Source: Trueperaceae bacterium
GTDB lineage: Bacteria > Deinococcota > Deinococci > Deinococcales > Trueperaceae
Length of the DNA stretch: 64,000 bases
NCBI GenBank assembly: GCA_051649365.1
Contig: JBOFGY010000135.1
Span: 9,842 to 73,841 of the forward strand
Reading direction: 5' to 3'
Position numbers and translations under genes: made by a program. The notes below the pieces were generated by a model. It was given only the letters and a program-made list of their open reading frames with translations, was not told the DNA's origin and searched no databases. Shown one piece after another: positions 3,829-22,040 of this stretch (position 1 is its first letter; each line of letters starts with the position of its first letter).

Positions 3829-4782
3829 TCAACCCCGTGTCGGGGCAGAGAAAAGCTGACTTACCGACTGATTATCGTGAACGTTGCGAACTGCCGAGGC
3901 AATCAACGGGGCGACGGAAAGCACGTTAATCTTGCCGAGATGACCCGTGTATGGAATGGTATCTGTGACAATGACTTCTTTAATCGCAGGATGAGAAAGG
4001 CGGTCAATCGCAGGTGGGACGAAAACTGGGTGCGTGGCAGCTAGAGTAATTTCGGGAACGGCCCCGAGCTCGACTAAGCCCTCGACGGTTCTGGCTACGG
4101 TGCCGGCGGTAGAAATCATGTCGTCAATCATGATGGGGCGTTTGCCGCTAACTTCACCAATGACGTGTGAAACTTCGGTTTCGGTGGGACTGCGGCGACG
4201 TTTGTAAAGAATGGCGAGGTCGAGCCCGAGGGTATTAGCAAGTCTGCGTCCTTCGGTGGCGCGGCCTACGTCAGGTGAAACAATGATGCTTTGGCTGAGA
4301 TCGGTTTTTTTGAGATAGCCGCTCAAAATATCGAGGGCGGTGAGGTGGTCAACGGGGACATCGAAGAAGCCCTGGATTTGTCCTGCATGCAGGTCTACCG
4401 TAATAACCCGGTGGATGCCGGCTTTCTCGAGCATATTAGCGACAAGTTTTGCCGTAATCGGTTCCCTCGCCTGTACTTTTTTATCTTGGCGCGCATAGCC
4501 AAAATATGGAATTACGGCATTAATACGCCAGGCTGAAGCGCGGCGCAGCGCATCCACGAAGACAAGGAGTTCCATGACGTTATGATTAACAGGTGCACAG
4601 GTGGACTGAATAATATAGCAATCACAACCGCGCACCGATTCTTCAATAAGCACGCGACTTTCACCATCTGGAAATTGCGTAATATTGCCTTGAGCAAGAG
4701 GTAAACCTAAATGGTCGGCAACTTTTTGGGCCAGGTCGTGGGTTGCACTACCCGCAAACAACTTAATCTCTTCGCCAATCAT
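3829..4782 (-). CDS. prs: ribose-phosphate pyrophosphokinase
   Basis: 317 aa with the motifs FPDGE, YFGYARQDKK and the PRPP-binding loop IIVSPDVGRA...MIDDMISTAGT. Confidence 0.95.
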   Translation of the reverse strand: MIGEEIKLFAGSATHDLAQKVADHLGLPLAQGNITQFPDGESRVLIEESVRGCDCYIIQSTCAPVNHNVMELLVFVDALRRASAWRINAVIPYFGYARQDKKVQAREPITAKLVANMLEKAGIHRVITVDLHAGQIQGFFDVPVDHLTALDILSGYLKKTDLSQSIIVSPDVGRATEGRRLANTLGLDLAILYKRRRSPTETEVSHVIGEVSGKRPIMIDDMISTAGTVARTVEGLVELGAVPEITLAATHPVFVPPAIDRLSHPAIKEVIVTDTIPYTGHLGKINVLSVAPLIASAVRNVHDNQSVSQLFSAPTRG

Positions 4783-4801
4783 GGGCGTTCACCAAAAAAA
4801 T

Positions 4802-4836
4802 AGGAGGAAGGAGGAAGGAGGAAGGAGGAAAGAGAA
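4802..4836. repeat. heptanucleotide array (AGGAGGA)x4 plus a degenerate unit
   Basis: AGGAGGA AGGAGGA AGGAGGA AGGAGGA AAGAGAA lies 20 nt upstream of the prs start codon. It would read as pyrimidine-rich CCTCCTT repeats in the prs 5' leader. Confidence 0.85.
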
Positions 4837-4974
4837 AGTCCTTCTTGCTGTTCTTGCCAGTCACTCTTCATAGCACGCCTCTCGAGCTTCGTTTTAGGTC
4901 TTTGTGGGTTAAAAACCCAACGGAGTATAACCTATCCTTACAGGTGCATTGCAAAAACATACAGAGCAAAAATT

Positions 4975-5023
4975 GTAAAACGTAAGACGTTAAAGGTGAA
5001 ACGTTTAACGTCTTTTACGTCTT
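4975..5023. repeat. degenerate heptanucleotide array forming a hairpin
   Basis: GTAAAAC GTAAGAC GTTAAAG GTGAAAC GTTTAAC GTCTTTT ACGTCTT. GTAAGACGTTAAA pairs with TTTAACGTCTTTTAC. Confidence 0.6.
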
Positions 5024-5395
5024 AACTCTTCTTCTCACATCCTTAACGCGATATCTTTTTAACATGACAGCACTGCGGTATGTGGTGTATCATTTGGCTT
5101 TAGAGCAGCGTGTGGCTTTATAGCGGCGTGTGTAAATCACTACTCTCTTCATGGAAATGGTAGCATTGAGTTAAAGTCCCTACAAGATGTGGCCCTGTGC
5201 GAGGGTCACAGGCTTAGGTTACCTTAAGGCTATACCGCGAAAGGCTTGCGAAGTTAGGCTAGCTGGGTAGTGAGTGCCAAGTATTTTGAAATTTAGGTGG
5301 AGTTTTTTAGGCTTAATCACGAGGTTGACGATGACTAAAACAGTGACACCAGACATAACCTGCACACCTGGACTGTTCACAGCAAGGGAGTCTTC

Positions 5396-6073
5396 ATGCA
5401 ATGGCTAATTAACGGCGGACCCGTCATGATACCGATTGTCCTTATTTCGCTCTACGCGGTGTATGTGTTTTTCGACCGACTTTTTAAGCTCAACCGGGAG
5501 AAACTCGAGACCGACGCGCTCATGTTGCGTGTCAATGCTGCGGTGAAAGACCGTGACTTAGAATCTGCCCTTGCTGCCTGTGATACGCATGGTGGCCCTG
5601 TCGCGCGTGTTTTGAAAGCCGCCCTGCTCAAACTTCCCTATGGACGCGCTGCTGTGGAGGCTGCCTTTCAAGAAAGTTATCTTGTCGAAGAATCTGAATT
5701 GTCACGTGGTTTAAGACCGCTTCACACCATTGCCCAAATTGCGACGCTCCTTGGTTTGCTCGGTACGGTTACAGGGATGATTCAAGCCTTTAATGTTATT
5801 GCCCTGCAAGGAACCGGTGACCCTGGTGCGATGGCTGCAGGCATCAGTGAGGCCCTCATTACTACCGCGTCAGGGCTGAGTGTAGCGATTCCTGTTGTGA
5901 TAGGACAAAACTATTTGTCTAGCCGCGTCGATAAGATCTTGCTCGAGATTGAACGTCGCCGTGAAGAACTCATGTCCAATGTTGCCCAAGCTGTAGCGGG
6001 TAAACGTGACAGAAGTGATATAAGAACTCCAACCTCCGTAAGTCAAGGTGACTACGAAACGGTGCGAGGTTAA
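5396..6073 (+). CDS. MotA/TolQ/ExbB-family proton channel protein
   Basis: 225 aa with three TM segments and the family motif AQIATLLGLLGTVTGMIQAF...ISEALITTASGL. GGGAG Shine-Dalgarno lies 6 nt upstream. Confidence 0.85.
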   Translation: MQWLINGGPVMIPIVLISLYAVYVFFDRLFKLNREKLETDALMLRVNAAVKDRDLESALAACDTHGGPVARVLKAALLKLPYGRAAVEAAFQESYLVEESELSRGLRPLHTIAQIATLLGLLGTVTGMIQAFNVIALQGTGDPGAMAAGISEALITTASGLSVAIPVVIGQNYLSSRVDKILLEIERRREELMSNVAQAVAGKRDRSDIRTPTSVSQGDYETVRG

Positions 6074-6075
6074 CG

Positions 6076-6480
6076 ATGCGCTCGAGACGTAAACGCTTAG
6101 ACATGAGTGGCATCGGCATTGACCTTACGCCGATGGTAGATGTGGCGTTCACCCTTATTATGTTTTTTATGGTCTCCATGACCTTTATTACTTCGCAATC
6201 AGGTATGCCTGTAGATTTGCCCCAAGCGACAACGGCAGCGATTACGTCACCCGAAACACCAAGCGTAACGATTAACAGTCAGAATCAAGTTTTTTTAGGA
6301 AATACGCAAGTAGCAGTAGAAAACCTGGAAGCGCAACTCAAAGCAACCTTGCAACAAACAGGTTTTAGCGTCGTCGTGCTTCGTGCCGATAAAAACGTGT
6401 TGCACGGTCTTTCGGTACAAGTGATGGATATTATCAAAAGGGCAGGCGCGCAGAGGATTGCGATTGCCACAGGAAGCTAA
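6076..6480 (+). CDS. ExbD/TolR-family biopolymer transport protein
   Basis: 134 aa. IDLTPMVDVAFTLIMFFMV is the signature TM. Translationally close to the upstream ExbB-like gene (2-nt gap). Confidence 0.85.
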   Translation: MRSRRKRLDMSGIGIDLTPMVDVAFTLIMFFMVSMTFITSQSGMPVDLPQATTAAITSPETPSVTINSQNQVFLGNTQVAVENLEAQLKATLQQTGFSVVVLRADKNVLHGLSVQVMDIIKRAGAQRIAIATGS

Positions 6481-6646
6481 GGAAGAGCCTTTAACCGAGC
6501 GTATCATGCTGTTATGACTTGGTGAGCTAAGCGATTCGTCGATGACACCATCGGCTAAAGGCTCTTCCCCACATATATCGAACTAACTTCTCGCTAAGGT
6601 TTCATTCACAATAAAAAGAGACCTATGTAATTACAGAGACCCAGCC

Positions 6647-8827
6647 ATGACCAACGTGCCAGAGAACAACCTAAAGCAAGATATTAACAACAAAGATAAA
6701 CGCCGAGCGGCGATGTTATCCGTGTTTATACACGCTTTGTTGTTTTTGCTGTTAGCGTTGTACCGTTTGCCAGAGCCAAAGCCACTCGAGACCTACCTCG
6801 TGATTGATGTTGGCGTACCTGCCTTTTCAGAAACAGAAACGCTGGCACCTGCTGCCGATGCACCAGCACCGCTTGCTGCTGAACCTTTAGTAGCCTCAGA
6901 AACTGCTGGCACGCCCCAGGCACAAAGTGCGCCCGAGGCTCCGCCGGCTTCAGCCCCCGTTGCCGAGGCACCCGCCCCCACCGAAGCTGCACCAACGCCC
7001 GAGGTGGCACCCGCCCCCGAACCGCAGCCAGCGGCCCCTGCCCCTGAACCCCAACCTGCACCCGAACCTCAACCAGAGGTAATAGAACCCCAAGTTGCAG
7101 AAGCAGCTCCGCCTGTCTCAACCGAACTTCCTGAAACCCAAGAAACTACCGCAACCTTGCCAGAAATTGAGGCAGTAGAAACAACCCCCGAAGCTCAAGC
7201 GATTGCACTGCCAACTCCCACACCCCAAGTGGATGTTGCGCCAGCCGTTAATGTCACTACGCAGGCAAGTGTTGACATCGCACCAGAGCAACCCCTGCCT
7301 ACCCCAAACGCGCAAGCCAGTGTAGCTGAGTCTCAGACGATTCCACAGCCGCAGGTTGAAACAAGTGTTGCTGAGGCGATTGCTATTCCACAACCCCAAG
7401 CCGAAATGAGTGTGGCTGAAGCTGTCGCCATTCCACAACCGCAAAGTCAGGCAAGTGTGAGCGCAGCCCAAGCCATTCCGCAACCGCAGGCACAAAGCAG
7501 TGTGGCTGCGGCGCAGGCTATTCCTCAGCCCCAAGCAGCAGCTAATGTTGCAGAAGCTGAAGCGGTTCCTCTTCCCAATGCCCAAGCTACGGTTAGTGCC
7601 GCCCAAACGATTCCTTCACCAAATGCCAGCTCGAGTGTCAGTGCATCAGAATTTATTCCTGCCCCGAACGCTAAAGCAAGTGTGACACCTGCCCAAACAA
7701 TTCCTGCACCTCAAGCGCAAGTGAGTGTTGCCCCTGGCGCATCCAATGCAGACTCTGCATTGGACTCGAGTGCGGCCACCGCCGCTAGCGGTGAAGACGG
7801 AACTTCAGGCCCAACACTTCCCGGTGCAGCGCAGGCGAACACAAATGCACTGGGGCAGCCGTCACCGGAAGATGGGGGGAACTCGAGCACCTCAGGTCAA
7901 ACCACCGAAGACCCGAACGCTACTACCGAAGGTTTAGGCGCAGCTGCCAGTTCAGATGGTGAAGGTGAAGGCACGGGTGCGCCCTACGCCCAAGCTCCCT
8001 ACCGCGAAAACCGTGACCGCCCCCTCAACGTGATGATTGATAACACCTTTGGTTATCCGCAAGCAGGCTTGCAAGAAGCCTCGATGGTTGTCGAGATGCC
8101 CGTCGAAGGTGGTGCTACGCGCCTTATGACCACGTATGACCGCGTTGACCCCTCGAGGGTTGGCCCCGTGCGAAGTGCCAGAGACTACTTTCACACGTTA
8201 TCGAGCAATATGGATGGCGTACTCGTGCATGATGGTGGTTCGCCACAAGCGATGGCTGCCATTGAGCGTGGCAGCATACCTACACTTAACGCCTATAACA
8301 ATGGTGGTCTTTTCAAACGCGAAGGTGGCGAAGCTCCTTACAATTTGTTCTCGAGTGGCAGCTCGTTGCGTGAGGCCGTGGCGAAACTTAGGCTCAACCG
8401 CTCGAGACCCGTGAGTGGCACGATTTTCCGTCCCGAAGACACTGAGAGCGCAGCAACAACTATCAAGGTAAATTATTCGGGCGCGTATGACAGCGGCTTT
8501 CAGTACATCGAAGACTTAGACCAATATCGCTGGATACGCAACGGAGACGACGCGGTAGATTTTTCAGGTCAAGCTGTGTACGCCCAAGCTGTGCTCGTTG
8601 CAACGATTACGGCGAAGGAAATTCCTGATGATCCTGCGAGTAGGCTGTATATTCCGCTCGAGAGTAGCCGCGCCACACTTTATGTTCGTGGGAAAGCGAT
8701 TGCGGGAAATTGGTCACCCAATGGTGGCATTCAATTTGCGACAAGTCTCGGGGAACCCATTGATTTAACGCCATTCAAAACCTGGGTGCTGTTTACGCCA
8801 ACCTATGCTGAAGTAACGCAACAGTAA
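6647..8827 (+). CDS. TonB-like N-terminal anchor, Pro/Ala-rich repeat spacer and C-terminal DUF3048 domain
   Basis: The N-terminus KRRAAMLSVFIHALLFLLLAL resembles the TonB anchor. It is followed by a long APEPQP spacer and then 15-aa repeats. The C-terminus RPLNVMIDNTFGYPQAGLQEASMVVEMPVEGGATRLMTTYD...GPVRSARDYF matches my recollection of DUF3048 rather than a TonB C-terminal domain. Confidence 0.7.
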   Translation: MTNVPENNLKQDINNKDKRRAAMLSVFIHALLFLLLALYRLPEPKPLETYLVIDVGVPAFSETETLAPAADAPAPLAAEPLVASETAGTPQAQSAPEAPPASAPVAEAPAPTEAAPTPEVAPAPEPQPAAPAPEPQPAPEPQPEVIEPQVAEAAPPVSTELPETQETTATLPEIEAVETTPEAQAIALPTPTPQVDVAPAVNVTTQASVDIAPEQPLPTPNAQASVAESQTIPQPQVETSVAEAIAIPQPQAEMSVAEAVAIPQPQSQASVSAAQAIPQPQAQSSVAAAQAIPQPQAAANVAEAEAVPLPNAQATVSAAQTIPSPNASSSVSASEFIPAPNAKASVTPAQTIPAPQAQVSVAPGASNADSALDSSAATAASGEDGTSGPTLPGAAQANTNALGQPSPEDGGNSSTSGQTTEDPNATTEGLGAAASSDGEGEGTGAPYAQAPYRENRDRPLNVMIDNTFGYPQAGLQEASMVVEMPVEGGATRLMTTYDRVDPSRVGPVRSARDYFHTLSSNMDGVLVHDGGSPQAMAAIERGSIPTLNAYNNGGLFKREGGEAPYNLFSSGSSLREAVAKLRLNRSRPVSGTIFRPEDTESAATTIKVNYSGAYDSGFQYIEDLDQYRWIRNGDDAVDFSGQAVYAQAVLVATITAKEIPDDPASRLYIPLESSRATLYVRGKAIAGNWSPNGGIQFATSLGEPIDLTPFKTWVLFTPTYAEVTQQ
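7296..7740 (+). repeat. in-frame 45-nt (15-aa) degenerate tandem repeat, ~10 copies, inside the TonB-like gene
   Basis: Units include IPQPQVETSVAEAIA / IPQPQAEMSVAEAVA / IPQPQSQASVSAAQA / IPQPQAQSSVAAAQA / IPQPQAAANVAEAEA / VPLPNAQATVSAAQT / IPSPNASSSVSASEF / IPAPNAKASVTPAQT. Confidence 0.85.
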
Positions 8828-8871
8828 AAAGTAAAGCCTTCTTAAACATCACACCAGAAATTGCACTCACA

Positions 8872-9108
8872 ATGATTTTACGAGCCAACCGCAGTCCTTT
8901 GACGATTAAAGAAGGCATTGCCGTTTTGACACACTATCCAGAATTTTTGCAAAACAATAATTGTTTCTCCTTGTTTGCTTCGCGCACCACAGACCAGCGT
9001 GTACATGCCTTGTGGATTAGCGAGAAGCAACCTAAACTTGGTTGGTGCTGGGATAGAAATCCGCATACCTGGTTGGGCTCGGTTTCGTGCGGAGCCCTAG
9101 TTAGTTAG
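8872..9108 (+). CDS. hypothetical protein (78 aa)
   Basis: ORF only. Trp/Cys-containing motif KLGWCWDRNPHTWLGS. Overlaps the convergent regulator gene by 4 nt. Family not recognised. Confidence 0.35.
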   Translation: MILRANRSPLTIKEGIAVLTHYPEFLQNNNCFSLFASRTTDQRVHALWISEKQPKLGWCWDRNPHTWLGSVSCGALVS

Positions 9109-10106
9109 ACAAGATTTCCCTTGGCAAGTTCTATTGCACGTTTTGCTAAGTCCTCAAAGGCTTTTTTCAAAGCAGTAGGCTCAAGCACTTTCACGGCGTA
9201 GGGAAGCTCGAGCAAATACACAACCACGCGCCAGAACCATTCTGGGTGTGCCATCACCGTGAGCATCACACCATCATCAACAGGCTCGAGCGTCGCTATA
9301 TAAGCGGGAATATATTTGCTGGCTTCTACTAAGTTTGTTTGCAACAGAACGCGGCAGGGAACACTGCCAGGAAACGGTGCTTGGGCAAGTGATTCACTAA
9401 TTGTTTTGAAGGCGTTAAAGTTTTTGGGTGGCTTGAAAGTCTCACCTGTAGTTTTTAATATCTCGAGCCTGTCTAGCCTAAATGTTCTTACATCTTTTCG
9501 CAAATGGCAATAGCCAGCGACATACCAATTGTTATTGAGATAAACGATGCCGTAAGGGTCTAGCTTTCGGTAGGTAAAACCGCTCTCGTGCGAACGATAG
9601 CGAACCTCGAGCCTTTCCTTATGCTGCACCGCTTGCGAGACATCGAGCATCGTGTGGCTTTCTACCTTGTCCAGCTTGAGTGGTTCAGATGTTTCGGTCT
9701 CGAGTGTTTGCAACACAGAATCTATGCGCTCACCAAGGCTTTCACTCAGGACGTGCTCGAGACGTTTAAACGCGCTCTCGGCAGCTTTGGCAAGTTTGGG
9801 TGTTTTCGTGCGTTGAGCTTGTTTTAAGCCTAACGCCAGGACGAGGGCTTCATCATCTGTAAAACGCAAGGCTGGTAAAAGCGAGCCCCGTCCTAATGTG
9901 ACTCCGCCGCCGCGCCCTGGCAGGGTTTCTACTTCAATCTCGAGGTCTTGGAGTCTTGCAAGGTCACGGCGGATGGTGCGTTCGCTTACACCAAAATGTT
10001 CTGCTAGAGCTTGTGTGGTGAGTTGCTTTTGTCCACGCAGTAAGTCAACCATTGCAAAAAGCCTGTCAGTGAGTCCATTCATTCTAAAAGGAATCATACT
10101 TGACAA
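9105..10106 (-). CDS. YafY-type transcriptional regulator (N-terminal HTH plus WYL domain)
   Basis: HTH region LTTQALAEHFGVSERTIRRDLARL. WYL region NWYVAGYCHLRKDVRTFRLDRL. The start may be the internal MNGLTDRLF (10082). Confidence 0.85.
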   Translation of the reverse strand: MSSMIPFRMNGLTDRLFAMVDLLRGQKQLTTQALAEHFGVSERTIRRDLARLQDLEIEVETLPGRGGGVTLGRGSLLPALRFTDDEALVLALGLKQAQRTKTPKLAKAAESAFKRLEHVLSESLGERIDSVLQTLETETSEPLKLDKVESHTMLDVSQAVQHKERLEVRYRSHESGFTYRKLDPYGIVYLNNNWYVAGYCHLRKDVRTFRLDRLEILKTTGETFKPPKNFNAFKTISESLAQAPFPGSVPCRVLLQTNLVEASKYIPAYIATLEPVDDGVMLTVMAHPEWFWRVVVYLLELPYAVKVLEPTALKKAFEDLAKRAIELAKGNLV

Positions 10107-10116
10107 TGCGCCTAAA

Positions 10117-10137
10117 CCTGGTCAAATCGTGTCCAGG
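10117..10137. promoter_or_regulatory. palindromic motif copy 1 (CCTGGTCA-N5-TGTCCAGG) in the divergent regulator / epoxide hydrolase region
   Basis: CCTGGTCAAATCGTGTCCAGG lies 11 nt from the regulator ORF start and ~155 nt upstream of the hydrolase start. Flanks are shared with copies 2 and 3 (CTAAAyCTGG.CA-N5-TGTCCAGGTT...TTTT). Confidence 0.5.
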
Positions 10138-10293
10138 TTTCGTTTTATCTTTTTGCTATGAGGCACCCAAAAAGAACCCCAAGCCTCGAAAGGAGAAGTG
10201 ATGAAATCCAGGTGGCACGAGGTCTTAGCAATCGTTGTAGCAAGTTGTTTAGGTTTTCATTTCAGTTATTCCCAAACAGAAAAGGAGAATGCT

Positions 10294-11439
10294 ATGAACG
10301 TTACACCCTTTACGATCAATGTTTCTCAAGAGGTGCTCGAGGATTTGCAATATCGTTTGGCGAACACACGCTGGCCTGATGAAGCTGACGGGGCAGGCTG
10401 GGAGTACGGCACAAACTTGGGCTATATGAAAGAGCTTGTGGACTACTGGCAAAACGAATACGACTGGCGCGAGCAAGAAGCAAAGCTCAACACCTTCAAA
10501 CAGTTCAAAGCTGATGTTGATGGCACAGAGATTCATTTCATCCATGAACGCGGCAAAGGCCCAAATCCCACGCCCCTCTTGTTACTTCATGGCTGGCCTG
10601 ACTCTTTCTACCGATTCTATAAACTCATTCCGATGCTGACCGACCCCTCGAGCTTTGGCGGTGACCCAGATCACTCTTTTGATGTCATCGTGCCTTCGCT
10701 GCCTGGGTTTGGTTTTTCGGAAAAGAGTGAAGTGAAATCAACCAGAGCCGCCGAACTCTTGACAACGTTAATGACTGACGTGCTTGGCTATGAGAAGTTT
10801 GGCGTACATGGTGGTGATATTGGAGCCAGAGTGACAAGGTTGATAGCCGCAACGCATCCTGAGAGTCTTCTCGGTATCCACATGACGGACATTGGCTTTC
10901 CAGGTGATATTAGTTTTACGCCTGACTTATCTAACCCTTCACCAGCCGAGCAGGGATTTCTCGGTTCTGTTCAAGGCTGGTTTTTTCAAGAAGGTGCTTA
11001 CGCAATGCTGCAATCTACCAAACCGCAGACAATTTCTTACAGCTTGAATGATTCACCTGTTGGTTTAGCTGCCTGGATTGTCGAGAAGTTTCGCTCATGG
11101 AGTGATTGCAATGGCACTATTGAAGCGTGTTACAGCGAAGATGAACTTCTTACCAACATCATGATTTATTGGCTGACCGAAACAATATCTTCTTCGGCGC
11201 GTCTCTATTACGAGGATGCACGTTCAGGGCCACAGCTTCAAGCAGGGCAATATCTTGAAGTTCCCGCAGGTGTGGCTACTTTTCCGAAAGACCTCACTGT
11301 GCCACCGCGTGAAACGGGCGAGCGGTTCTTGCGCGTGAAGCAGTGGACGAAGATGCCCAAGGGTGGACACTTCGCAGCCTTGGAGCAACCAGAATTGTTA
11401 GTTCAGGATATAAGCACGTTCTTCAATCAACTCCGCTAA
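10294..11439 (+). CDS. epoxide hydrolase (N-terminal EHN domain plus alpha/beta hydrolase fold)
   Basis: MNVTPFTINVSQEVLEDLQYRLANTRWPDE...YDWREQEAKLN...IHFIHERG...LLLLHGWPDSF is the microsomal-type epoxide hydrolase N-terminal pattern. I prefer ATG 10294 (AAGGAGA SD 6 nt upstream) over 10198. Confidence 0.85.
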   Translation: MNVTPFTINVSQEVLEDLQYRLANTRWPDEADGAGWEYGTNLGYMKELVDYWQNEYDWREQEAKLNTFKQFKADVDGTEIHFIHERGKGPNPTPLLLLHGWPDSFYRFYKLIPMLTDPSSFGGDPDHSFDVIVPSLPGFGFSEKSEVKSTRAAELLTTLMTDVLGYEKFGVHGGDIGARVTRLIAATHPESLLGIHMTDIGFPGDISFTPDLSNPSPAEQGFLGSVQGWFFQEGAYAMLQSTKPQTISYSLNDSPVGLAAWIVEKFRSWSDCNGTIEACYSEDELLTNIMIYWLTETISSSARLYYEDARSGPQLQAGQYLEVPAGVATFPKDLTVPPRETGERFLRVKQWTKMPKGGHFAALEQPELLVQDISTFFNQLR

Positions 11440-11454
11440 AGTTCTCTTTCTAAA

Positions 11455-11475
11455 TCTGGACAGTTTTTGTCCAGG
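11455..11475. promoter_or_regulatory. palindromic motif copy 2 (TCTGGACA-N5-TGTCCAGG) within a ~75-bp repeated leader
   Basis: TCTGGACAGTTTTTGTCCAGG is followed by a T-run, ~50 nt upstream of the VOC gene. The stretch 11449-11523 is ~85% identical to 13036-13112. It could also act as a terminator hairpin. Confidence 0.5.
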
Positions 11476-11523
11476 TTCTTTTTTACTCTTTTTGTAGAGG
11501 TTGAGACCTAGAGAGGAGAAAAA

Positions 11524-11889
11524 ATGAAACTCGATCATATTAATTTAACGGTTAGCGATGTCATAAAAGCAAGTACGTTTTTGAAAAAACACCTTGGCTA
11601 TAAAGATGTGTTTGACGACAATAATGCTGGCATGGCAGCTCTGAGCGACGGAAGCGGTATGCACGTTCTTTTGATGAAAGGCTCGAGGGCGACTTATCCT
11701 AAATATTTTCACATTGGCTTTGATATGGAGACGGAAGCAAATGTCAGTGCAGTCTATGACAGGCTTAAAGCTGACGGCATAGAGACTAACCCACCTGAAC
11801 ACACCGCTTGGGGGTCGTGGACGTTTAATTTTAAGTGTCCTGGCAGTGACTTCACGATTGAAGTTGCTTGTGCAAGCGAAGAAAATTAA
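11524..11889 (+). CDS. VOC-family protein (glyoxalase / bleomycin-resistance / dioxygenase fold)
   Basis: 121 aa. MKLDHINLTVSD...FLKKHLG...FHIGF is the typical VOC beta-alpha-beta-beta-beta module. Confidence 0.8.
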   Translation: MKLDHINLTVSDVIKASTFLKKHLGYKDVFDDNNAGMAALSDGSGMHVLLMKGSRATYPKYFHIGFDMETEANVSAVYDRLKADGIETNPPEHTAWGSWTFNFKCPGSDFTIEVACASEEN

Positions 11890-11942
11890 AAATCTTGAAA
11901 TGTTTGGTGTATTTTAATTATGTGTCTGGAGAAAAAGTAACG

Positions 11943-13013
11943 ATGAATCAAGCAAAGGTCGCCCTGCACCGCCTTCACGTTCAGGGCATCACGACGCAGA
12001 AGTTTGCAACCCCCGCAGAGGTGGTGCGTTGGCACTGTGCGGTGCAAGCTCAAGATTATTTAAGCTCCTTGTGGGCAATTGGGTTACGAATGCAAGCCTC
12101 GAGCGAGAGCCATATCGAGCGTGCGGTTGCAGAGAAAAGTATTGTCCGCACTTGGCCGATGCGCGGCACGATTCACTTTGTCGCCCCTGAAGATGCACGG
12201 TGGATGCTAAAGCACTTCACGCCTCGAGTCATTGCTCGCAGTAGGGGGCGGTATCGCCAGTTAGAGCTTGATGATGCAGTATTTTCAAAAAGCAGTAAGG
12301 TTCTAACAAAAGCGTTGCAAGGTGGTAAGTCTTTAACGCGAAATGCACTCTACGAGGTTTTAGAAAAAGCAAATATTTCTACATCTGCGAGTCGTGGGCC
12401 TCACATCATCGGTCATCTTGCACAGGAGGGATTGCTTTGTTTTGGAGCACGTCATGGGAAACAACCCACCTTTGTTTTGCTCGAGGAGTGGCTACCGTCC
12501 GCTAAATTTTTAGAGCGCGACGAGGCTATTGCTGAACTTACCAAACGGTACTTCTCGAGTCACGGGCCAGCGACGTTGCAAGATTTCGCGTGGTGGTCAG
12601 GGTTGACTATGACAGAGGCGAAAGAAGGACTCGAAGATGTTAAAACGGAGTTGCATCAAAAAGAAGTTGAGGGTCAAACTTATTGGTTCACTGAAGATGG
12701 AGTGACAGTCAATTCAGAGAAGGCTTACTTGCTCCCTTTCTTTGATGAATTCCTCGTTGCTTACAAAGACCGCACGGCGGCCCTCGAGCCTTCGCATACA
12801 AAGCAAGTTAACGCTGGTGGCGGCTTACTCAATCCGACGATTGTCTTGAATGGTCAAGTCATCGGTACTTGGAAGCGTACACTCAAAAAAGCTGAAGTAA
12901 TTATCCACTTGAGTCCGTTTGCTAGGCTCGAGGATAGCCAGCTAGAAAAAATCACACGGGCGGCACAAGGTTACGCTGAATTTATTGGTAAGGCAGCTCG
13001 AGTCATACTGTAG
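11943..13013 (+). CDS. winged-helix DNA glycosylase-like protein (AlkZ/YcaQ, DUF1006 family)
   Basis: 356 aa. The motifs VVRWHCAVQAQDY (Q-x-Q catalytic-type motif as I recall for AlkZ), RTWPMRGTIHFV and FAWWSGL fit the family pattern. ATG 11943 is preceded by GGAGAAA. Confidence 0.7.
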   Translation: MNQAKVALHRLHVQGITTQKFATPAEVVRWHCAVQAQDYLSSLWAIGLRMQASSESHIERAVAEKSIVRTWPMRGTIHFVAPEDARWMLKHFTPRVIARSRGRYRQLELDDAVFSKSSKVLTKALQGGKSLTRNALYEVLEKANISTSASRGPHIIGHLAQEGLLCFGARHGKQPTFVLLEEWLPSAKFLERDEAIAELTKRYFSSHGPATLQDFAWWSGLTMTEAKEGLEDVKTELHQKEVEGQTYWFTEDGVTVNSEKAYLLPFFDEFLVAYKDRTAALEPSHTKQVNAGGGLLNPTIVLNGQVIGTWKRTLKKAEVIIHLSPFARLEDSQLEKITRAAQGYAEFIGKAARVIL

Positions 13014-13041
13014 CAACAAGTTTTATCCAGACACTCCTAAA

Positions 13042-13062
13042 TCTGGACAGTTTTTGTCCAGG
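13042..13062. promoter_or_regulatory. palindromic motif copy 3 (TCTGGACA-N5-TGTCCAGG)
   Basis: Identical 21-mer to copy 2, ~50 nt upstream of the DJ-1/PfpI gene. An extra half-site-like TCCAGA lies at 13026-13031. Confidence 0.5.
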
Positions 13063-13112
13063 TTCTTTTTTATGCTTTTTTTAGAGGCTAAAGACCTCGA
13101 GAGGAGTAAGCA

Positions 13113-13706
13113 ATGAAAAAGAAAGCATACGTTTTAGTCTTTGATGGGTTTGCGGATTGGGAACCTGCCCACGCTTTATGTGGGATTGCCATGTCAGGAA
13201 AGCTCGAGATAGTAAATGTTGGATTTTCGCTCGAGCCGATTCGTTCAATGGGTGGACTCAAAGTAGTTCCAGATATTACTTTGGAGCAAGTTGTTCCCTC
13301 GCAAGCAGCCATTTTTATTTTGCCAGGTGGCACGAGATGGGAACAGAGCGAGAGTCCTGAAATTACTGAGTTCCTGCACAAGTTACAAGCTGAAAAAGTT
13401 CTTGTTGCTGCGATTTGTGGGGCGACGCTCGAGGTTGCTAGAGCAGGCTTAACGAAGGGTGTAAAGCACAGTAGCAATGCGCTCGAGTATTTCAAAATGA
13501 ATCTTCCTGACTACAAAGATGAAGCGTTCTATGTCAACGAGCCAGCCGTCACTGATGGGTTGCTGATTACGGCGGGTGCTGTGTACAGCGTCGAGTTTGC
13601 ACGAGAAATCTTTAAGAGACTCGAGACCTTTAGTGAAACTCAGATAGAAGCCTGGTTCAATCTTTATAAGCACGGTATCTGGTCACCAGAACTCGCCGCC
13701 GCTTAG
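13113..13706 (+). CDS. DJ-1/PfpI-family protein (type 1 glutamine amidotransferase-like fold)
   Basis: 197 aa. The nucleophile-elbow context VLVAAICGATL and the LPGG motif are typical of DJ-1/PfpI. Confidence 0.75.
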   Translation: MKKKAYVLVFDGFADWEPAHALCGIAMSGKLEIVNVGFSLEPIRSMGGLKVVPDITLEQVVPSQAAIFILPGGTRWEQSESPEITEFLHKLQAEKVLVAAICGATLEVARAGLTKGVKHSSNALEYFKMNLPDYKDEAFYVNEPAVTDGLLITAGAVYSVEFAREIFKRLETFSETQIEAWFNLYKHGIWSPELAAA

Positions 13707-13729
13707 ACGATTCGTTGAAAGGAGTAAAC

Positions 13730-14170
13730 ATGTTACAGGGAATCACGACCATTTCTTATTGGGCGGAAGATGTAGCTGCCGCAAAAAAGTGGTACAGCGA
13801 ACTCTTAGGCATCGAACCTTATTTCAACGTGCCAAACGAGGATGGGTCACTGGGTTACACCGAATTTCGCATTGGTGATTATCAGCACGAGCTGGGAATC
13901 ATTGACCGCCGTTTTGCGCCCTTTGATGCTTCAGTGACGCACACGGCAGGCGCGGTTGTTTACTGGCACGTTTCTAATGTGGCAGAAACGCTCGAGAAAC
14001 TGCTGGCGATGGGAGCAAGAGAACTCGAGGCTCTTAAAGATCGTGGCGAAGGGTTTATAACAGCTTCTGTCGCTGACCCTTTTGGAAATATTTTGGGAAT
14101 CATGTACAACCCGCATTATCTAAAAATATTGAATCAAATAAAACAAGACATGAAAGGCGAAAAATCATGA
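13730..14170 (+). CDS. VOC-family protein (glyoxalase-like)
   Basis: MLQGITTISYWAEDVAAAKKWYSELLG...GARELEALKDRGEGFITASVADPFGNILGI fits the VOC fold. ATG 13730 is preceded by AAAGGAG. Confidence 0.75.
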   Translation: MLQGITTISYWAEDVAAAKKWYSELLGIEPYFNVPNEDGSLGYTEFRIGDYQHELGIIDRRFAPFDASVTHTAGAVVYWHVSNVAETLEKLLAMGARELEALKDRGEGFITASVADPFGNILGIMYNPHYLKILNQIKQDMKGEKS

Positions 14171-14280
14171 GACTCGATCACGTTAATTTAACAGTTAGCA
14201 CCGCTTGGGGTTCCTGAACCTTTCACTTAAAGTGTCTTGGGGGTGATTTTTCGGTTGAGGTGGCGTGCTCGAGTGAGTAA
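14167..14280 (+). pseudogene. internally deleted, nonsense-bearing copy of the VOC gene at 11524-11889
   Basis: MRLDHVNLTVS joins directly to TAWGS*TFHLKCLGGDFSVEVACSSE*. The intact paralog reads MKLDHINLTVSD...HTAWGSWTFNFKCPGSDFTIEVACASEEN*. TGG has become TGA and ~80 codons are missing. Confidence 0.75.
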
Positions 14281-14290
14281 AAGCTACTTC

Positions 14291-14405
14291 AAGACTTACG
14301 CAAAAAGAGTGAAGTAAGCAGAACAAGGTTGGTTGGCTGTGTTGTTCAAAACCAGCCTTGTTCTCGTAGCTAACCGCATTATTTGAAGAAATATGCGTAA
14401 GTCTT
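14291..14405. terminator. long nested hairpin at a convergent gene junction
   Basis: The outer 12-bp perfect inverted repeat AAGACTTACGCA / TGCGTAAGTCTT encloses the inner pair AGAACAAGGTTGG / CCAGCCTTGTTCT. Confidence 0.5.
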
Positions 14406-14428
14406 TGTACTTGTGAAAGAGTCAAGTC

Positions 14429-15103
14429 TTAAACAGACCTGGCAAGGCGAAAGCCAAGGTCGTCAATCTTGAAGGTCGGATGGCTGCGGCGACGGCAGGT
14501 GGCTCCGCAGCCTCTGGCCTCTTCAGCCCAGCCACCACCACGAAAGACACGATAAGGCCCGTAAACCTGTTCGTCATAAATATCCCAGCACCACTCCCAG
14601 ATATTGCCTAGCATGTCATAAAGACCCCAGGCATTCGGTTCTTTTTTGCCTACTTCTTGAAGAGCGTTGCTCGAGTTGCCACGATACCAGGCGATGGCTT
14701 CCAGTTCTCCGTACCTATACTTTTTATTGCCTGCCTGACATGCGTACTGCCACTCGGCTTCTGTTGGCAAGCGGTAGCCATTTGCCGCCTTATCCCAAAT
14801 GACATGCTCACCGTTCAGTGAATAGCACTCGCTTAGACCTGCCTCGTGGGAAAGCCAATTGCAAAACAAAACCGCGTCATACCACGAGACGTTGACCACA
14901 GGCTTGTGACCGTTGCCAGAAAAAGTAGCTGCTGCCTTTGTCATGCTCAGATAAAACGCTGTCGTCACTGGATATTGACCGAGAAGGAAAGGGTCGAGTT
15001 CGACACGCCATTGCTTTTTGACGCGATCATCTCTCAACTCTATTACGCCGCCTGGAATACTGATGATGGGGTAAAGAGTCGGTTTTTCTTTTGTTTGTAA
15101 CAA
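14429..15103 (-). CDS. formylglycine-generating enzyme (SUMF1/FGE-sulfatase) family protein
   Basis: WYDAVLFCNWLS...YRLPTEAEWQYA...GNIWEWCWD...RVFRGGGW...GFRLARS are hallmark FGE-family motifs. Confidence 0.8.
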   Translation of the reverse strand: MLQTKEKPTLYPIISIPGGVIELRDDRVKKQWRVELDPFLLGQYPVTTAFYLSMTKAAATFSGNGHKPVVNVSWYDAVLFCNWLSHEAGLSECYSLNGEHVIWDKAANGYRLPTEAEWQYACQAGNKKYRYGELEAIAWYRGNSSNALQEVGKKEPNAWGLYDMLGNIWEWCWDIYDEQVYGPYRVFRGGGWAEEARGCGATCRRRSHPTFKIDDLGFRLARSV

Positions 15104-18956: not shown

Positions 18957-19088
18957 GCTTTAGCTTAACCATAGTTAAGATGAGTACGTTTGAACTAAAG
19001 GTTATGTAATACTAAAAGATGCAATAGTTAAAGTAAATGTGTTAGACATAAACATTAAACGTTCACGGCTTTGGACAATACTAAAAGT

Positions 19089-20567: not shown

Positions 20568-22040
20568 ATGGCTCGTAAATCCGCACTTTCCTACGACAGA
20601 GGTACGCTTATTCTGCATCCACCACCGAAAGGGAAGGCGTGGTTAGATTTTGCGACCTGGGATGACCGCATTGAAAAATTTCGAGTGCCTGCTAGGGACT
20701 ATAGAAAGCTGCTCGAGACCTGCAAACTTGAAGGTATAGACATTGAAGATAGAGCGCGGAGTTTTCGGGAGCTCGAGCTAAAACCGCTCACCCAAGAACC
20801 GTTTAAGCACCAACAAGAAGCTTTAGAGAATTGGATTCGGGCCAAGCGGCAAGGCGTGGTTGTGTTACCAACGGGTGCAGGTAAAACGTTCGTTGCACAT
20901 ATGGCCATTGAAGCCACGCCGCGCAGTTCACTCATTGTCGTACCAACTCTCGATTTAATGCATCAGTGGTATGCGAATCTAAAAGCAGCGTTTCCAGAGG
21001 TTGAAGTGGGTTTACTTGGCGGTGGTTCAAAAGATGATTCACCCATTCTTGTTGCCACCTACGACAGTGCCGCCATTTACGCTGAGAAACTTGGCAATCA
21101 ATACGCCTTACAAATTTTTGATGAATGCCATCACTTACCTGGTGACTTTGTAAGAACGATTGCTGAGTATTCGATTGCGCCGTACCGTTTAGGGCTTACC
21201 GCAACGCCCGAACGTGGGGATAACAAGCACACCGATTTAGACATACTTATTGGCCCAGTTATTTACCGCAAAGCCCCCGAGGACTTAGCTGGTGGCGCAC
21301 TGTCAGAGCATAAAATTAAACAAATTAAAGTGACACTTTCTGCTGCTGAACGTGCCGAATACGATAAACTCATTGCCCAACGCAATGAGTTTTTGGCGAA
21401 AAGCAGAATTTCCCTTGGAACACTGGACGGCTGGCAGCGTTTCGTGCAAGCCAGTGGCAGGAGTAAAGAAGGCCGCGCCGCGATGCTCGCGCACCGCAAC
21501 GCACGGCAGATTGCCTTTGGCACGACAGCAAAAATGGAAACACTCGCGGGACTACTCGAGCAGCACCACGGAGACCGCTTGTTAGTTTTCACAGACGATA
21601 ACGCGATGGTTTACCGCATTTCGCAAACTTTTTTAGTGCCAGCGATTACGCACCAGAGCAAAGTCAAAGAACGCCACGAGATTTTACAAAAATTCCGTGA
21701 GGGTGATTATCCGAGAGTCGTGACCTCGAGGGTTCTCAATGAAGGGGTAGATGTGCCTGAAGCCAATGTTGCGGTGATTTTGTCAGGCACGGGCACGACG
21801 AGAGAATACGTGCAGCGTCTAGGCCGCATTTTGCGACGTGGTGAAGGCAAACTCGCGCTGCTTTACGAAGTGATTGCAGAGAATACCGCAGAAGAAAATG
21901 TGTCAAAGCGGCGACGAGGAGAGTATAAAAAGACAGAAGAGGGGACAAGGGAAAGAGGAGAAGAGGAGAAGGAGAAAAGGCAGCAAAGATTATTTGACCG
22001 AATTAATAGTGAAGAAAGTTTGGGGTTTGATGATTTGTAA
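20568..22040 (+). CDS. xpb: XPB/Rad25-type SF2 DNA helicase
   Basis: N-terminal LSYDRGTLIL damage-recognition-like domain. Motif I is LPTGAGKT and motif II is DECHH. C-terminal helicase lobe TSRVLNEGVDVPEANV, then a charged tail. Confidence 0.8.
   Translation: MARKSALSYDRGTLILHPPPKGKAWLDFATWDDRIEKFRVPARDYRKLLETCKLEGIDIEDRARSFRELELKPLTQEPFKHQQEALENWIRAKRQGVVVLPTGAGKTFVAHMAIEATPRSSLIVVPTLDLMHQWYANLKAAFPEVEVGLLGGGSKDDSPILVATYDSAAIYAEKLGNQYALQIFDECHHLPGDFVRTIAEYSIAPYRLGLTATPERGDNKHTDLDILIGPVIYRKAPEDLAGGALSEHKIKQIKVTLSAAERAEYDKLIAQRNEFLAKSRISLGTLDGWQRFVQASGRSKEGRAAMLAHRNARQIAFGTTAKMETLAGLLEQHHGDRLLVFTDDNAMVYRISQTFLVPAITHQSKVKERHEILQKFREGDYPRVVTSRVLNEGVDVPEANVAVILSGTGTTREYVQRLGRILRRGEGKLALLYEVIAENTAEENVSKRRRGEYKKTEEGTRERGEEEKEKRQQRLFDRINSEESLGFDDL

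Follow-up and report, generated by a model that had tools for sequence, protein, structure and literature searches.

The 64-kb stretch of a Trueperaceae (Deinococcota) metagenome-assembled genome (MAG) analyzed here, referred to below as the window, carries at positions 9105-14280 a cluster in which a helix-turn-helix (HTH)-WYL regulator stands divergent from five co-oriented genes, encoding an epoxide hydrolase (EH), two VOC-fold proteins, an AlkZ-like putative DNA glycosylase and a DJ-1/PfpI-family protein. Three copies of a single operator/promoter module occur in the cluster, one ahead of each of three predicted transcription units. We read this arrangement as a local genotoxic- or electrophile-stress regulon governed by a WYL factor of the SiwR/PafBC type and activated at promoters devoid of a -35 element, a reading to which we assign a probability of roughly 0.6. 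The original prediction, made from the sequence alone, had proposed a unit coupling detoxification to DNA repair, an idea that is supported here in sharper form. The six genes and the decayed VOC copy that it listed agree in position with the open reading frame (ORF) list, Pfam and an alignment of the remnant, and each of its family assignments is borne out by Pfam profiles and by matches to solved structures. The AlkZ-like product is 100% identical to an NCBI protein assigned to a Trueperaceae MAG; exact-sequence look-ups with the AlkZ and WYL proteins of the window turned up no recorded contig. The features of the cluster are as follows:

9105..10106, (-) strand: HTH-WYL(-WCX) transcription factor (ORF list and Pfam; likely start at ATG 10097 or 10082)
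10114..10151, (+) strand: site 1, in the divergent intergenic region between the WYL and EH genes; palindrome AAACCTGGTCA-N5-TGTCCAGGTTT at 10114-10140 and TGTCCA-N10-TATCTT at 10130-10151
10294..11439, (+) strand: EH, microsomal-type (EHN) epoxide hydrolase (Pfam; the ORF opens at 10198)
11453..11489, (+) strand: site 2; palindrome AATCTGGACA-GTTTT-TGTCCAGGTT at 11453-11477, then TGTCCA-N10-TACTCT; terminator-like for EH
11524..11889, (+) strand: VOC1, small VOC-fold protein (Pfam PF00903)
11943..13013, (+) strand: AlkZ-like (HTH_42, PF06224) putative DNA glycosylase (Pfam, full length)
13040..13076, (+) strand: site 3; the palindrome of site 2 at 13040-13064, then TGTCCA-N10-TATGCT; terminator-like for AlkZ
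13113..13706, (+) strand: DJ-1/PfpI-family protein (Pfam DJ-1_PfpI)
13730..14170, (+) strand: VOC2, second VOC-fold protein (Pfam; the ORF opens at TTG 13715, ATG 13730 being the likelier start)
14168..14280, (+) strand: decayed paralogue of VOC1, disrupted by an internal deletion and a stop codon

The module came to light when a terminator scan flagged one 25-nt hairpin twice; a pattern search then found three near-identical sites, at 10114-10140, 11453-11477 and 13040-13064. No other copy is present in the 64 kb, in which 0.02 would be expected by chance, and the palindromes to which the original prediction had drawn attention are thus real and non-random. The module extends over about 75 nt and comprises cTAAAyCTGGwCA-N5-TGTCCAGGTTy, within which the palindrome proper (AAAyCTGGwCA-N5-TGTCCAGGTTy) covers 27 bp, followed by a T-rich stretch containing TAnnnT, a (G)TAGAGG element, and AGGAG with the ATG. 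In all three copies TGTCCA is separated from TAnnnT by exactly 10 nt, and inspection reveals no -35-like hexamer at 16-18 nt in any of them; a sigma-70 consensus scan missed all three promoters, as expected for promoters without a -35 element. The module precedes EH, VOC1-AlkZ and DJ-1-VOC2. Since each of these is headed by one palindrome/-10 module, the five (+) genes constitute, by their sequence organization, three transcription units under one control element and not a single operon: the co-oriented genes that had been proposed as a five-gene unit are all present, but they are divided among three units. Co-regulation of the three is strongly implied by the three copies of one operator/promoter module, and autoregulation of the WYL gene is likely because site 1 lies only 8-32 nt from the regulator start codon. 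Sites 2 and 3, near-identical over about 50 nt, fold into hairpins of -13 kcal/mol followed by U-runs (z=-4.75 for site 2), and probably also terminate the preceding unit.

This organization has the geometry of the promoters controlled by PafBC, whose consensus, tGTCgg(N10)tA(N3)T, has no -35 and contains an upstream part, the '-26 element', that is read by the PafB HTH (PMC8635444). The three sites of the window and three sites of its nearest relative, L001 in our numbering of surveyed loci, fit a tGTCnn-N10-TAnnnT grammar without a -35. The regulator itself (9105-10106, minus strand) matches the Pfam profiles WYL (E=5e-21), HTH_11 and HTH_PafC above threshold, and its alignment to PafC extends to residue 315. 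Its best solved structures are PafBC (6SJ9, E=1e-21) and then PafB and PafC of M. smegmatis (7P5X), with BrxR and CapW among the weaker matches. In PafB, R46 and R50 read the GTC triplet. According to PMC11804915, R181, Y196, R204, R208, R211 and R214, in a basic ligand groove, bind single-stranded DNA (ssDNA). By residue counting in the structure alignment, the counterparts in the regulator are R43/R47 for the former pair and R180, Y195, R203, R207, R210 and R213 for the latter set, and across 10 AlkZ-linked WYL factors these GTC-reading and ssDNA-binding counterparts are invariant or nearly so, those for ssDNA binding being invariant or at least 90% conserved.

Comparison with L001 indicates what is conserved in the operator. 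This locus is closely related to the window (80% identity for AlkZ, 84% for the WYL factor) and shares the cysS/Impact_N flank, with the gene order WYL<>RidA (<> denoting divergent genes), VOC2-VOC1-AlkZ and an MFS transporter. Its 12.9 kb contain exactly three copies of the palindrome, one between the WYL and RidA genes, one ahead of VOC2 and one ahead of the transporter gene. Compared with the window sites, the arms show no change, the loops have diverged, and TGTCCA-N10-TAnnnT is kept in 3/3; on sequence grounds this points to recognition of a specific sequence and not of a generic hairpin. In a third relative, L085, the site next to the WYL gene is retained. The grammar extends to more distant loci: among 64 non-redundant upstream regions of WYL relatives, 11 carry TGTC-N12-TAnnnT facing the target gene, and each other spacing (7-17) or the opposite orientation is found in 0-2 of them. 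It stands ahead of EH or AlkZ in L060, L103, L107, L114, L115 and L137/L143 and ahead of AlkZ in L041, and the operator of the EH/AlkZ-linked relatives reads ATYAGGRC-N7-TGTCCTRAT, then TAnnnT. Balneolales loci have TGACA-N6-TGTCA ahead of DinB, with the spacing to the -10 unchanged, as illustrated by L071 (TGACA-N6-TGTCAG-N10-TACATT). The Anaerolineales loci L009, L011 and L020 are without the TGTCC half-site; L011 and L020 carry TTACGTCA-N5-TGACGT-N10-TAGAAT instead.

The -10 hexamer is followed after 4-6 nt by the (G)TAGAGG or GTAGATGG element, roughly where transcription would be expected to start (window 10152-10165, 11490-11500 and 13077-13087). The element is also present, across phyla, in L001, L085, L103, L107, L114, L137, L143, L011 and L020. 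A structured 5' leader, for which the conserved GAGG..CCTC stretch before the Shine-Dalgarno sequence was the candidate, was dropped, as shuffled versions of the stretch fold just as well (z -0.3 to -0.6), and an Rfam scan of 8800-14600 gave no match and hence no known riboswitch or leader.

The AlkZ family is known for unhooking DNA cross-links, and we know of no bacterial glycosylases other than AlkZ and YcaQ that unhook interstrand cross-links. The product of 11943-13013 matches PF06224 with E=7e-68 over profile positions 1-329 of 329. Its best solved structure is AlkZ of S. sahachiroi (5UUJ, E=1e-26), to which it aligns over the whole length, with Q35-A36-Q37 falling on the catalytic QAQ and D38 following (Q35-A-Q37-D38 motif); the match to the AlkZ/YcaQ family, on which the original prediction had staked itself beforehand, is thus full-length and includes the catalytic residues. 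According to published motif rules, which define AZL as (Q/H)-phi-Q, YQL (YcaQ) as Q-phi-D and AZL2 as H-phi-(S/T)(D/E) (PMC9040887), the protein is of the AZL type by sequence, and it is a putative glycosylase whose activity we infer from this relationship. Q35, A36 and Q37 are invariant across 26 orthologues, and a Q(A/G/S)Q(D/E) motif is found in 81 of 89 AlkZ-family ORFs from 84 loci (81 non-redundant).

The HTH_42/PF06224 fold family unites the window protein with AlkZ of S. sahachiroi, AZL, YcaQ and AlkX (PMC9040887, PMC7367128), and several features set it apart. The acidic residue (D/E) that follows Q-x-Q in its orthologue group is absent from AlkZ. Streptomyces AZLs are diverse (PMC9040887), whereas the orthologue group of the window protein is unusually conserved, with 47-64% identity from Thermaceae to Acidobacteriota, Chloroflexota, Gemmatimonadota and Bacteroidota. 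Unlike AZL self-resistance genes, the window gene lies outside any biosynthetic cluster: such a setting was considered and rejected, as the 64 kb show no recognizable biosynthetic gene cluster and contain no ORFs of the size of a polyketide synthase or nonribosomal peptide synthetase. That VOC, DinB, ABC-transporter and second-AZL genes neighbor the Streptomyces AZL genes had already been noted (PMC9040887). Loci of the Chloroflexota type often contain two AlkZ paralogues in tandem, each with QAQ(D/E) (L009 6910-9086, L011, L020, L039, L058 and L143 1108-3322). Such pairs call to mind the paired glycosylases TxnU2/U4 and LldU1/U5.

The association of the glycosylase with WYL factors was assessed in two reciprocal surveys. 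Survey A covered AlkZ orthologues in 80 loci, one per species, with 4 further loci added and 3 duplicates removed (81 non-redundant). A WYL gene lies at most 2.6 kb upstream of the AlkZ orthologue in 10/81 loci, and in none does one lie in the outer flanks. The arrangements are as follows, with > denoting co-directional genes:

L009: WYL>EH>AlkZ>AlkZ
L011, L020: WYL>VOC2>AlkZ>AlkZ
L060: WYL<>EH>AlkZ
L070: WYL>DinB>AlkZ
L071, Balneolaceae, 4508-9098: WYL>DinB>DUF6157>DJ-1>AlkD-like (DNA_alkylation, PF08713)>AlkZ
L050: WYL>AlkZ
L039: WYL<>AlkZ, AlkZ

The search for a fixed conserved neighbor of the AlkZ orthologue was abandoned, as its neighborhood is highly variable; the only recurrent neighbors are WYL, DinB/DinB_2, VOC, DUF1697 and a second AlkZ. 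In L071, two different families of alkylation-repair glycosylases are located behind one WYL gene. Survey B examined 80 metagenomic loci encoding relatives of the regulator; identity is 82% for a single one of them and 31-40% for all others. AlkZ, EH or VOC is located upstream of the WYL gene in 15/58 informative loci, among them L143 (WYL<>EH,EH,AlkZ,AlkZ) and L114 (WYL<>EH,EH,AlkZ). The first divergent gene, recorded in 41 cases, encodes a protein of the alpha/beta hydrolase fold in 6 (EHN proteins included), an EHN protein, the commonest, in 5, isochorismatase and LysE in 3 each, AlkZ, ClbS-like DUF1706, VOC and DinB_2 in 2 each, and Tag in 1. Pfam annotation of the genes outside the modules in these metagenomic loci revealed nothing consistent.

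The neighborhood therefore recurs in relatives in a modular form, as seen in L001, L009, L060, L114, L143 and L071, and the idea of a fixed five-gene combination had to be given up, since EH and DJ-1 are interchangeable accessories. The surveys support a regulon whose constant theme is AlkZ-like repair of alkylated or cross-linked DNA, sometimes accompanied by AlkD-like or Tag enzymes, and whose variable part consists of small enzymes (EH, VOC, DJ-1, DinB, RidA and ClbS-like) and exporters. In Thermaceae the order is MarR-VOC1-AlkZ-ABC transporter, so that, with MarR in place of WYL, the VOC1-AlkZ repair pair appears wired to another regulator class. The Thermaceae MarR gene in L002 is preceded by a different palindrome, TTGACAATAACTTGTCAA (761-800), and is followed by the VOC1-AlkZ pair and an ABC exporter. 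In L114, an IS630-type transposase gene (HTH_33 and DDE_3; 276-1363) is found two genes beyond WYL<>EH,EH,AlkZ, after a gene with an AllH domain, and because of this nearby transposase there is a hint that such modules move between genomes.

The small enzymes of the window belong to families that act on small molecules. The EH contains a complete EHN domain (E=8e-41, positions 1-107 of 107) together with Abhydrolase_1, and HGWP, GGDIG and GGHF motifs can be read in its translation, in keeping with an EHN part and a hydrolase core with HGXP, an Asp nucleophile and a His. An in-frame ATG at 10201, served by the AGGAG of the module, would add MKSRWHEVLAIVVASC... to the protein (window 10201-10293), a lipoprotein-signal-like extension with a VASC lipobox; the start at 10294, which has its own AAGGAG, is favored by the length of the homologues (378-397 aa). 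VOC1 matches PF00903 (E=4e-12), and its closest solved structure is the uncharacterized B. cereus protein 1XQA (E=2e-22), followed by FosX (2p7k, E=6e-5). FosX is an Mn-dependent fosfomycin epoxide hydrolase, and His5 and His63 of VOC1 align with its metal ligands H7 and H69. An assignment of VOC1 as a FosX/FosA fosfomycin-resistance enzyme was rejected, as it scores 26.8 bits against a family cut-off of 170 and only the His ligands align. VOC2 has the VOC fold without the N-terminal His and matches solved structures marginally; its start at ATG 13730 is preceded by AAGGAG and agrees with the L001 orthologue. The DJ-1 protein (DJ-1_PfpI, E=1e-24) belongs to the 3EFE/YdeA group (3EFE, E=5e-37) and keeps the nucleophile-elbow Cys, its AAICGAT aligning with the 3EFE motif; it falls below the NCBIfam cut-offs for DJ-1 glyoxalase III and PfpI.

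The remnant at 14168-14280 consists of VOC1 residues 1-11 fused to residues 94-119, with a Trp-to-stop change, and overlaps the VOC2 stop by a 4-nt ATGA, like the intact VOC2-VOC1 pair of L001 (3369-3372). Because of this shared overlap, the DJ-1-VOC2-remnant unit appears to derive, by rearrangement, from a copy of an ancestral VOC2-VOC1 block, and recombination between the repeated 75-nt modules may have produced it.

From these data a mechanism can be proposed, by analogy with PafBC and SiwR. A homodimeric HTH-WYL factor would bind the 27-bp palindrome, present in three copies in the cluster, and, by engaging the '-26 element', would give the housekeeping RNA polymerase the upstream contact that these promoters lack, a mode termed sigma adaptation. 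It would act only when its WYL domain is loaded with ssDNA from damaged or stalled DNA, and the three units (EH; VOC1 with the AlkZ-like glycosylase; DJ-1 with VOC2) would be switched on together. The four small enzymes would then destroy or bind a reactive compound, perhaps an electrophile of the epoxide, aziridine or oxo-aldehyde type. N7-alkylguanine cross-links or bulky adducts would be removed by the glycosylase and handed on to base excision repair.

Several observations weigh against this reading. To our knowledge, sigma adaptation has been shown only for the heterodimeric actinobacterial (mycobacterial) PafBC, and a homodimer bound symmetrically to a complete palindrome may act in another way. 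The WCX match of the regulator is sub-threshold (E=0.009; 16.8 bits against a Pfam cut-off of 23.9), and EH, VOC1, VOC2 and DJ-1 reach no NCBIfam equivalog cut-off. Most AlkZ-orthologue loci (71/81) are without a nearby WYL gene, one clade uses MarR, and the complete five-gene set was found in no other locus surveyed. Sites 2 and 3 fit an intrinsic terminator, and their conservation could be partly for termination. The host is an uncultured MAG. Finally, repressors are known among WYL factors, BrxR and CapW being examples, and the same regulon might be controlled by a repressor of this kind that sits on the promoter-overlapping palindrome and is released by a ligand. The overlap of the operator with the -35/-26 region is compatible with repression, BrxR and CapW figure among the weaker structure matches, and site 1 abuts the regulator start, as is typical of autorepression. 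Promoters without a -35-like hexamer, however, would be weak unaided, the fixed TGTC-N12-TAnnnT spacing agrees with the geometry of PafBC activation, and the best structural relatives of the factor are PafB and PafC, not BrxR or CapW; we therefore consider a repressor unlikely, although it would leave the regulon unchanged.

Three further explanations were weighed. A catabolic or detoxification cluster for xenobiotics or epoxides, responding to a small-molecule inducer and carrying the AlkZ-like gene as a passenger or in a non-repair role, would account for EH, VOC (a dioxygenase/glyoxalase fold) and DJ-1 as classical small-molecule enzymes and for the isochorismatase, LysE, ADH and AraC-type genes among the divergent partners of WYL relatives. 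It is nevertheless improbable, given that AlkZ recurs as the partner in loci whose small enzymes change, that other DNA-alkylation repair genes join (AlkD-like in the L071 operon, Tag among the WYL partners) and that the WYL domain retains its ssDNA-binding residues. Still less probable is the view that the genes are functionally unlinked and the palindromes are intrinsic terminators or repetitive extragenic palindromic (REP)-like repeats scattered by duplication. The near-identity of sites 2 and 3, their -13 kcal/mol stem with a T-run and the rearrangement recorded by the VOC remnant would fit such an origin; yet site 1, which has no gene in front of it and a poor T-run, keeps the arms, no copies are scattered elsewhere in the window or in L001, the arms are conserved in sequence beyond pairing, and the TGTCC half-site with its spacing to the -10 persists in distant relatives with different left arms. 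A regulon defined by its regulator is favored over terminators or REP elements because the control sites are fixed while the genes behind them are exchanged. An anti-phage defense island under WYL control is barely credible: WYL factors often regulate defense systems and generic PADLOC WYL models match the regulator, but none of the six other proteins scanned (the five cluster proteins and an FGE-domain neighbor) matches a PADLOC model, and all five cluster proteins belong to detoxification or repair families.

Among described systems, SiwR of M. smegmatis is a homodimeric HTH-WYL activator, divergent from DinB_2/DUF664 genes (Glyoxalase_6 in some species), that binds ssDNA, is induced by H2O2 and zeocin, acts at a 19-bp palindrome located between the -35 and -10, and depends on the -26 region (PMC10693628). 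The likeness to the window, drawn from published features and not from sequence, comprises a divergent HTH-WYL gene, a palindromic operator and small putative detoxification targets. SiwR, confined to Actinobacteria, controls a single promoter and its regulon lacks a DNA repair enzyme, whereas the window has three promoters and an AlkZ-like glycosylase with EH, DJ-1 and VOC, and the hosts of the present system fall in Deinococcota, Chloroflexota and Bacteroidota-type lineages. PafBC (PMC8635444, PMC11804915) is the best structural relative and shares the tGTCnn-N10-TAnnnT grammar and the GTC-reading and ssDNA-binding residues; it is a heterodimer or fusion controlling about 150 genes genome-wide from asymmetric sites, in contrast to the single gene product, full palindrome and, as far as visible, local cluster of the window. 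DriD of Caulobacter crescentus is likewise a homodimeric WYL activator; ssDNA turns it on in a damage response that does not depend on SOS, and its targets are didA and recA (PMC9186387). It matches the window regulator weakly and over the WYL domain only (8tp8, E=0.006).

The combination had been thought undescribed, and in the literature searched we found no paper linking AlkZ with WYL and none treating WYL and epoxide hydrolases or DNA glycosylases as a unit. Parts of it are published all the same: SiwR is a WYL factor that activates neighboring detoxification genes during genotoxic stress (PMC10693628), and AZL genes beside VOC, DinB and transporter genes have been noted in Streptomyces (PMC9040887). 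What is new here is the pairing of regulator and glycosylase, the three-promoter layout and a PafBC-type promoter grammar outside Actinobacteria. A wider generalization, which we put forward tentatively and hold at somewhat short of even odds, is that widespread homodimeric WYL activators in Deinococcota, Chloroflexota and Balneolales/Chitinophagaceae run a modular, SOS-independent response to alkylation and cross-links through PafBC-style -26/-10 grammar, coupling interchangeable detoxifiers (EH, VOC, DJ-1, DinB, ClbS-like) to glycosylases of the AlkZ, AlkD or Tag type. The discussion in PMC9040887 raises the question of how AlkZ/YcaQ enzymes are regulated, and what they do, outside antibiotic producers, and a dedicated damage-sensing regulator with a recognizable operator would make their regulation directly testable. 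If the generalization is true, the Q-x-Q-D AlkZ-like clade would gain a defined physiological role and a predictable inducer, and sigma adaptation, with the identical grammar at promoters of three further phyla, would become a general bacterial mechanism. The operator could also serve as a marker for genotoxin-resistance genes, and possibly for environmental genotoxins, in uncultured bacteria.

Outside the cluster, the ten largest ORFs of the window are housekeeping, transport or signaling genes or have no Pfam match. Searched with what we take to be the RDRM consensus, the palindrome of the Deinococcus radiation/desiccation response (DdrO/IrrE), the window yielded two weak, chance-level matches, at 19035 and 43775, and none in the cluster. 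An XPB/Rad25-like helicase (XPB_DRD, ResIII, Helicase_C) is encoded at 20568-22040 on the (+) strand, about 6.5 kb downstream of the cluster, and no operator site was found near it. The flanks are unremarkable: on its 3' side the cluster is followed by a gene with an FGE-sulfatase domain, cysS and an Impact_N gene, and on its 5' side it is flanked by a truncated DUF5701 fragment and a gene for a DUF3048 protein. The DUF5701 fragment (8872-9108, (+) strand) contains only the C-terminal part of the domain (profile 113-202 of 206) and adjoins the 3' end of the WYL gene; as a gene fragment at the cluster edge, it suggests a past insertion or deletion there. In L001 an APH gene occupies this position. 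The DUF3048 protein (6647-8827, (+) strand) has a long Ala/Pro/Gln-rich N-terminal half of imperfect repeats (..AQAIPQPQ..), and these repeats account for an anomaly in GC content and AT skew at 6-8 kb.

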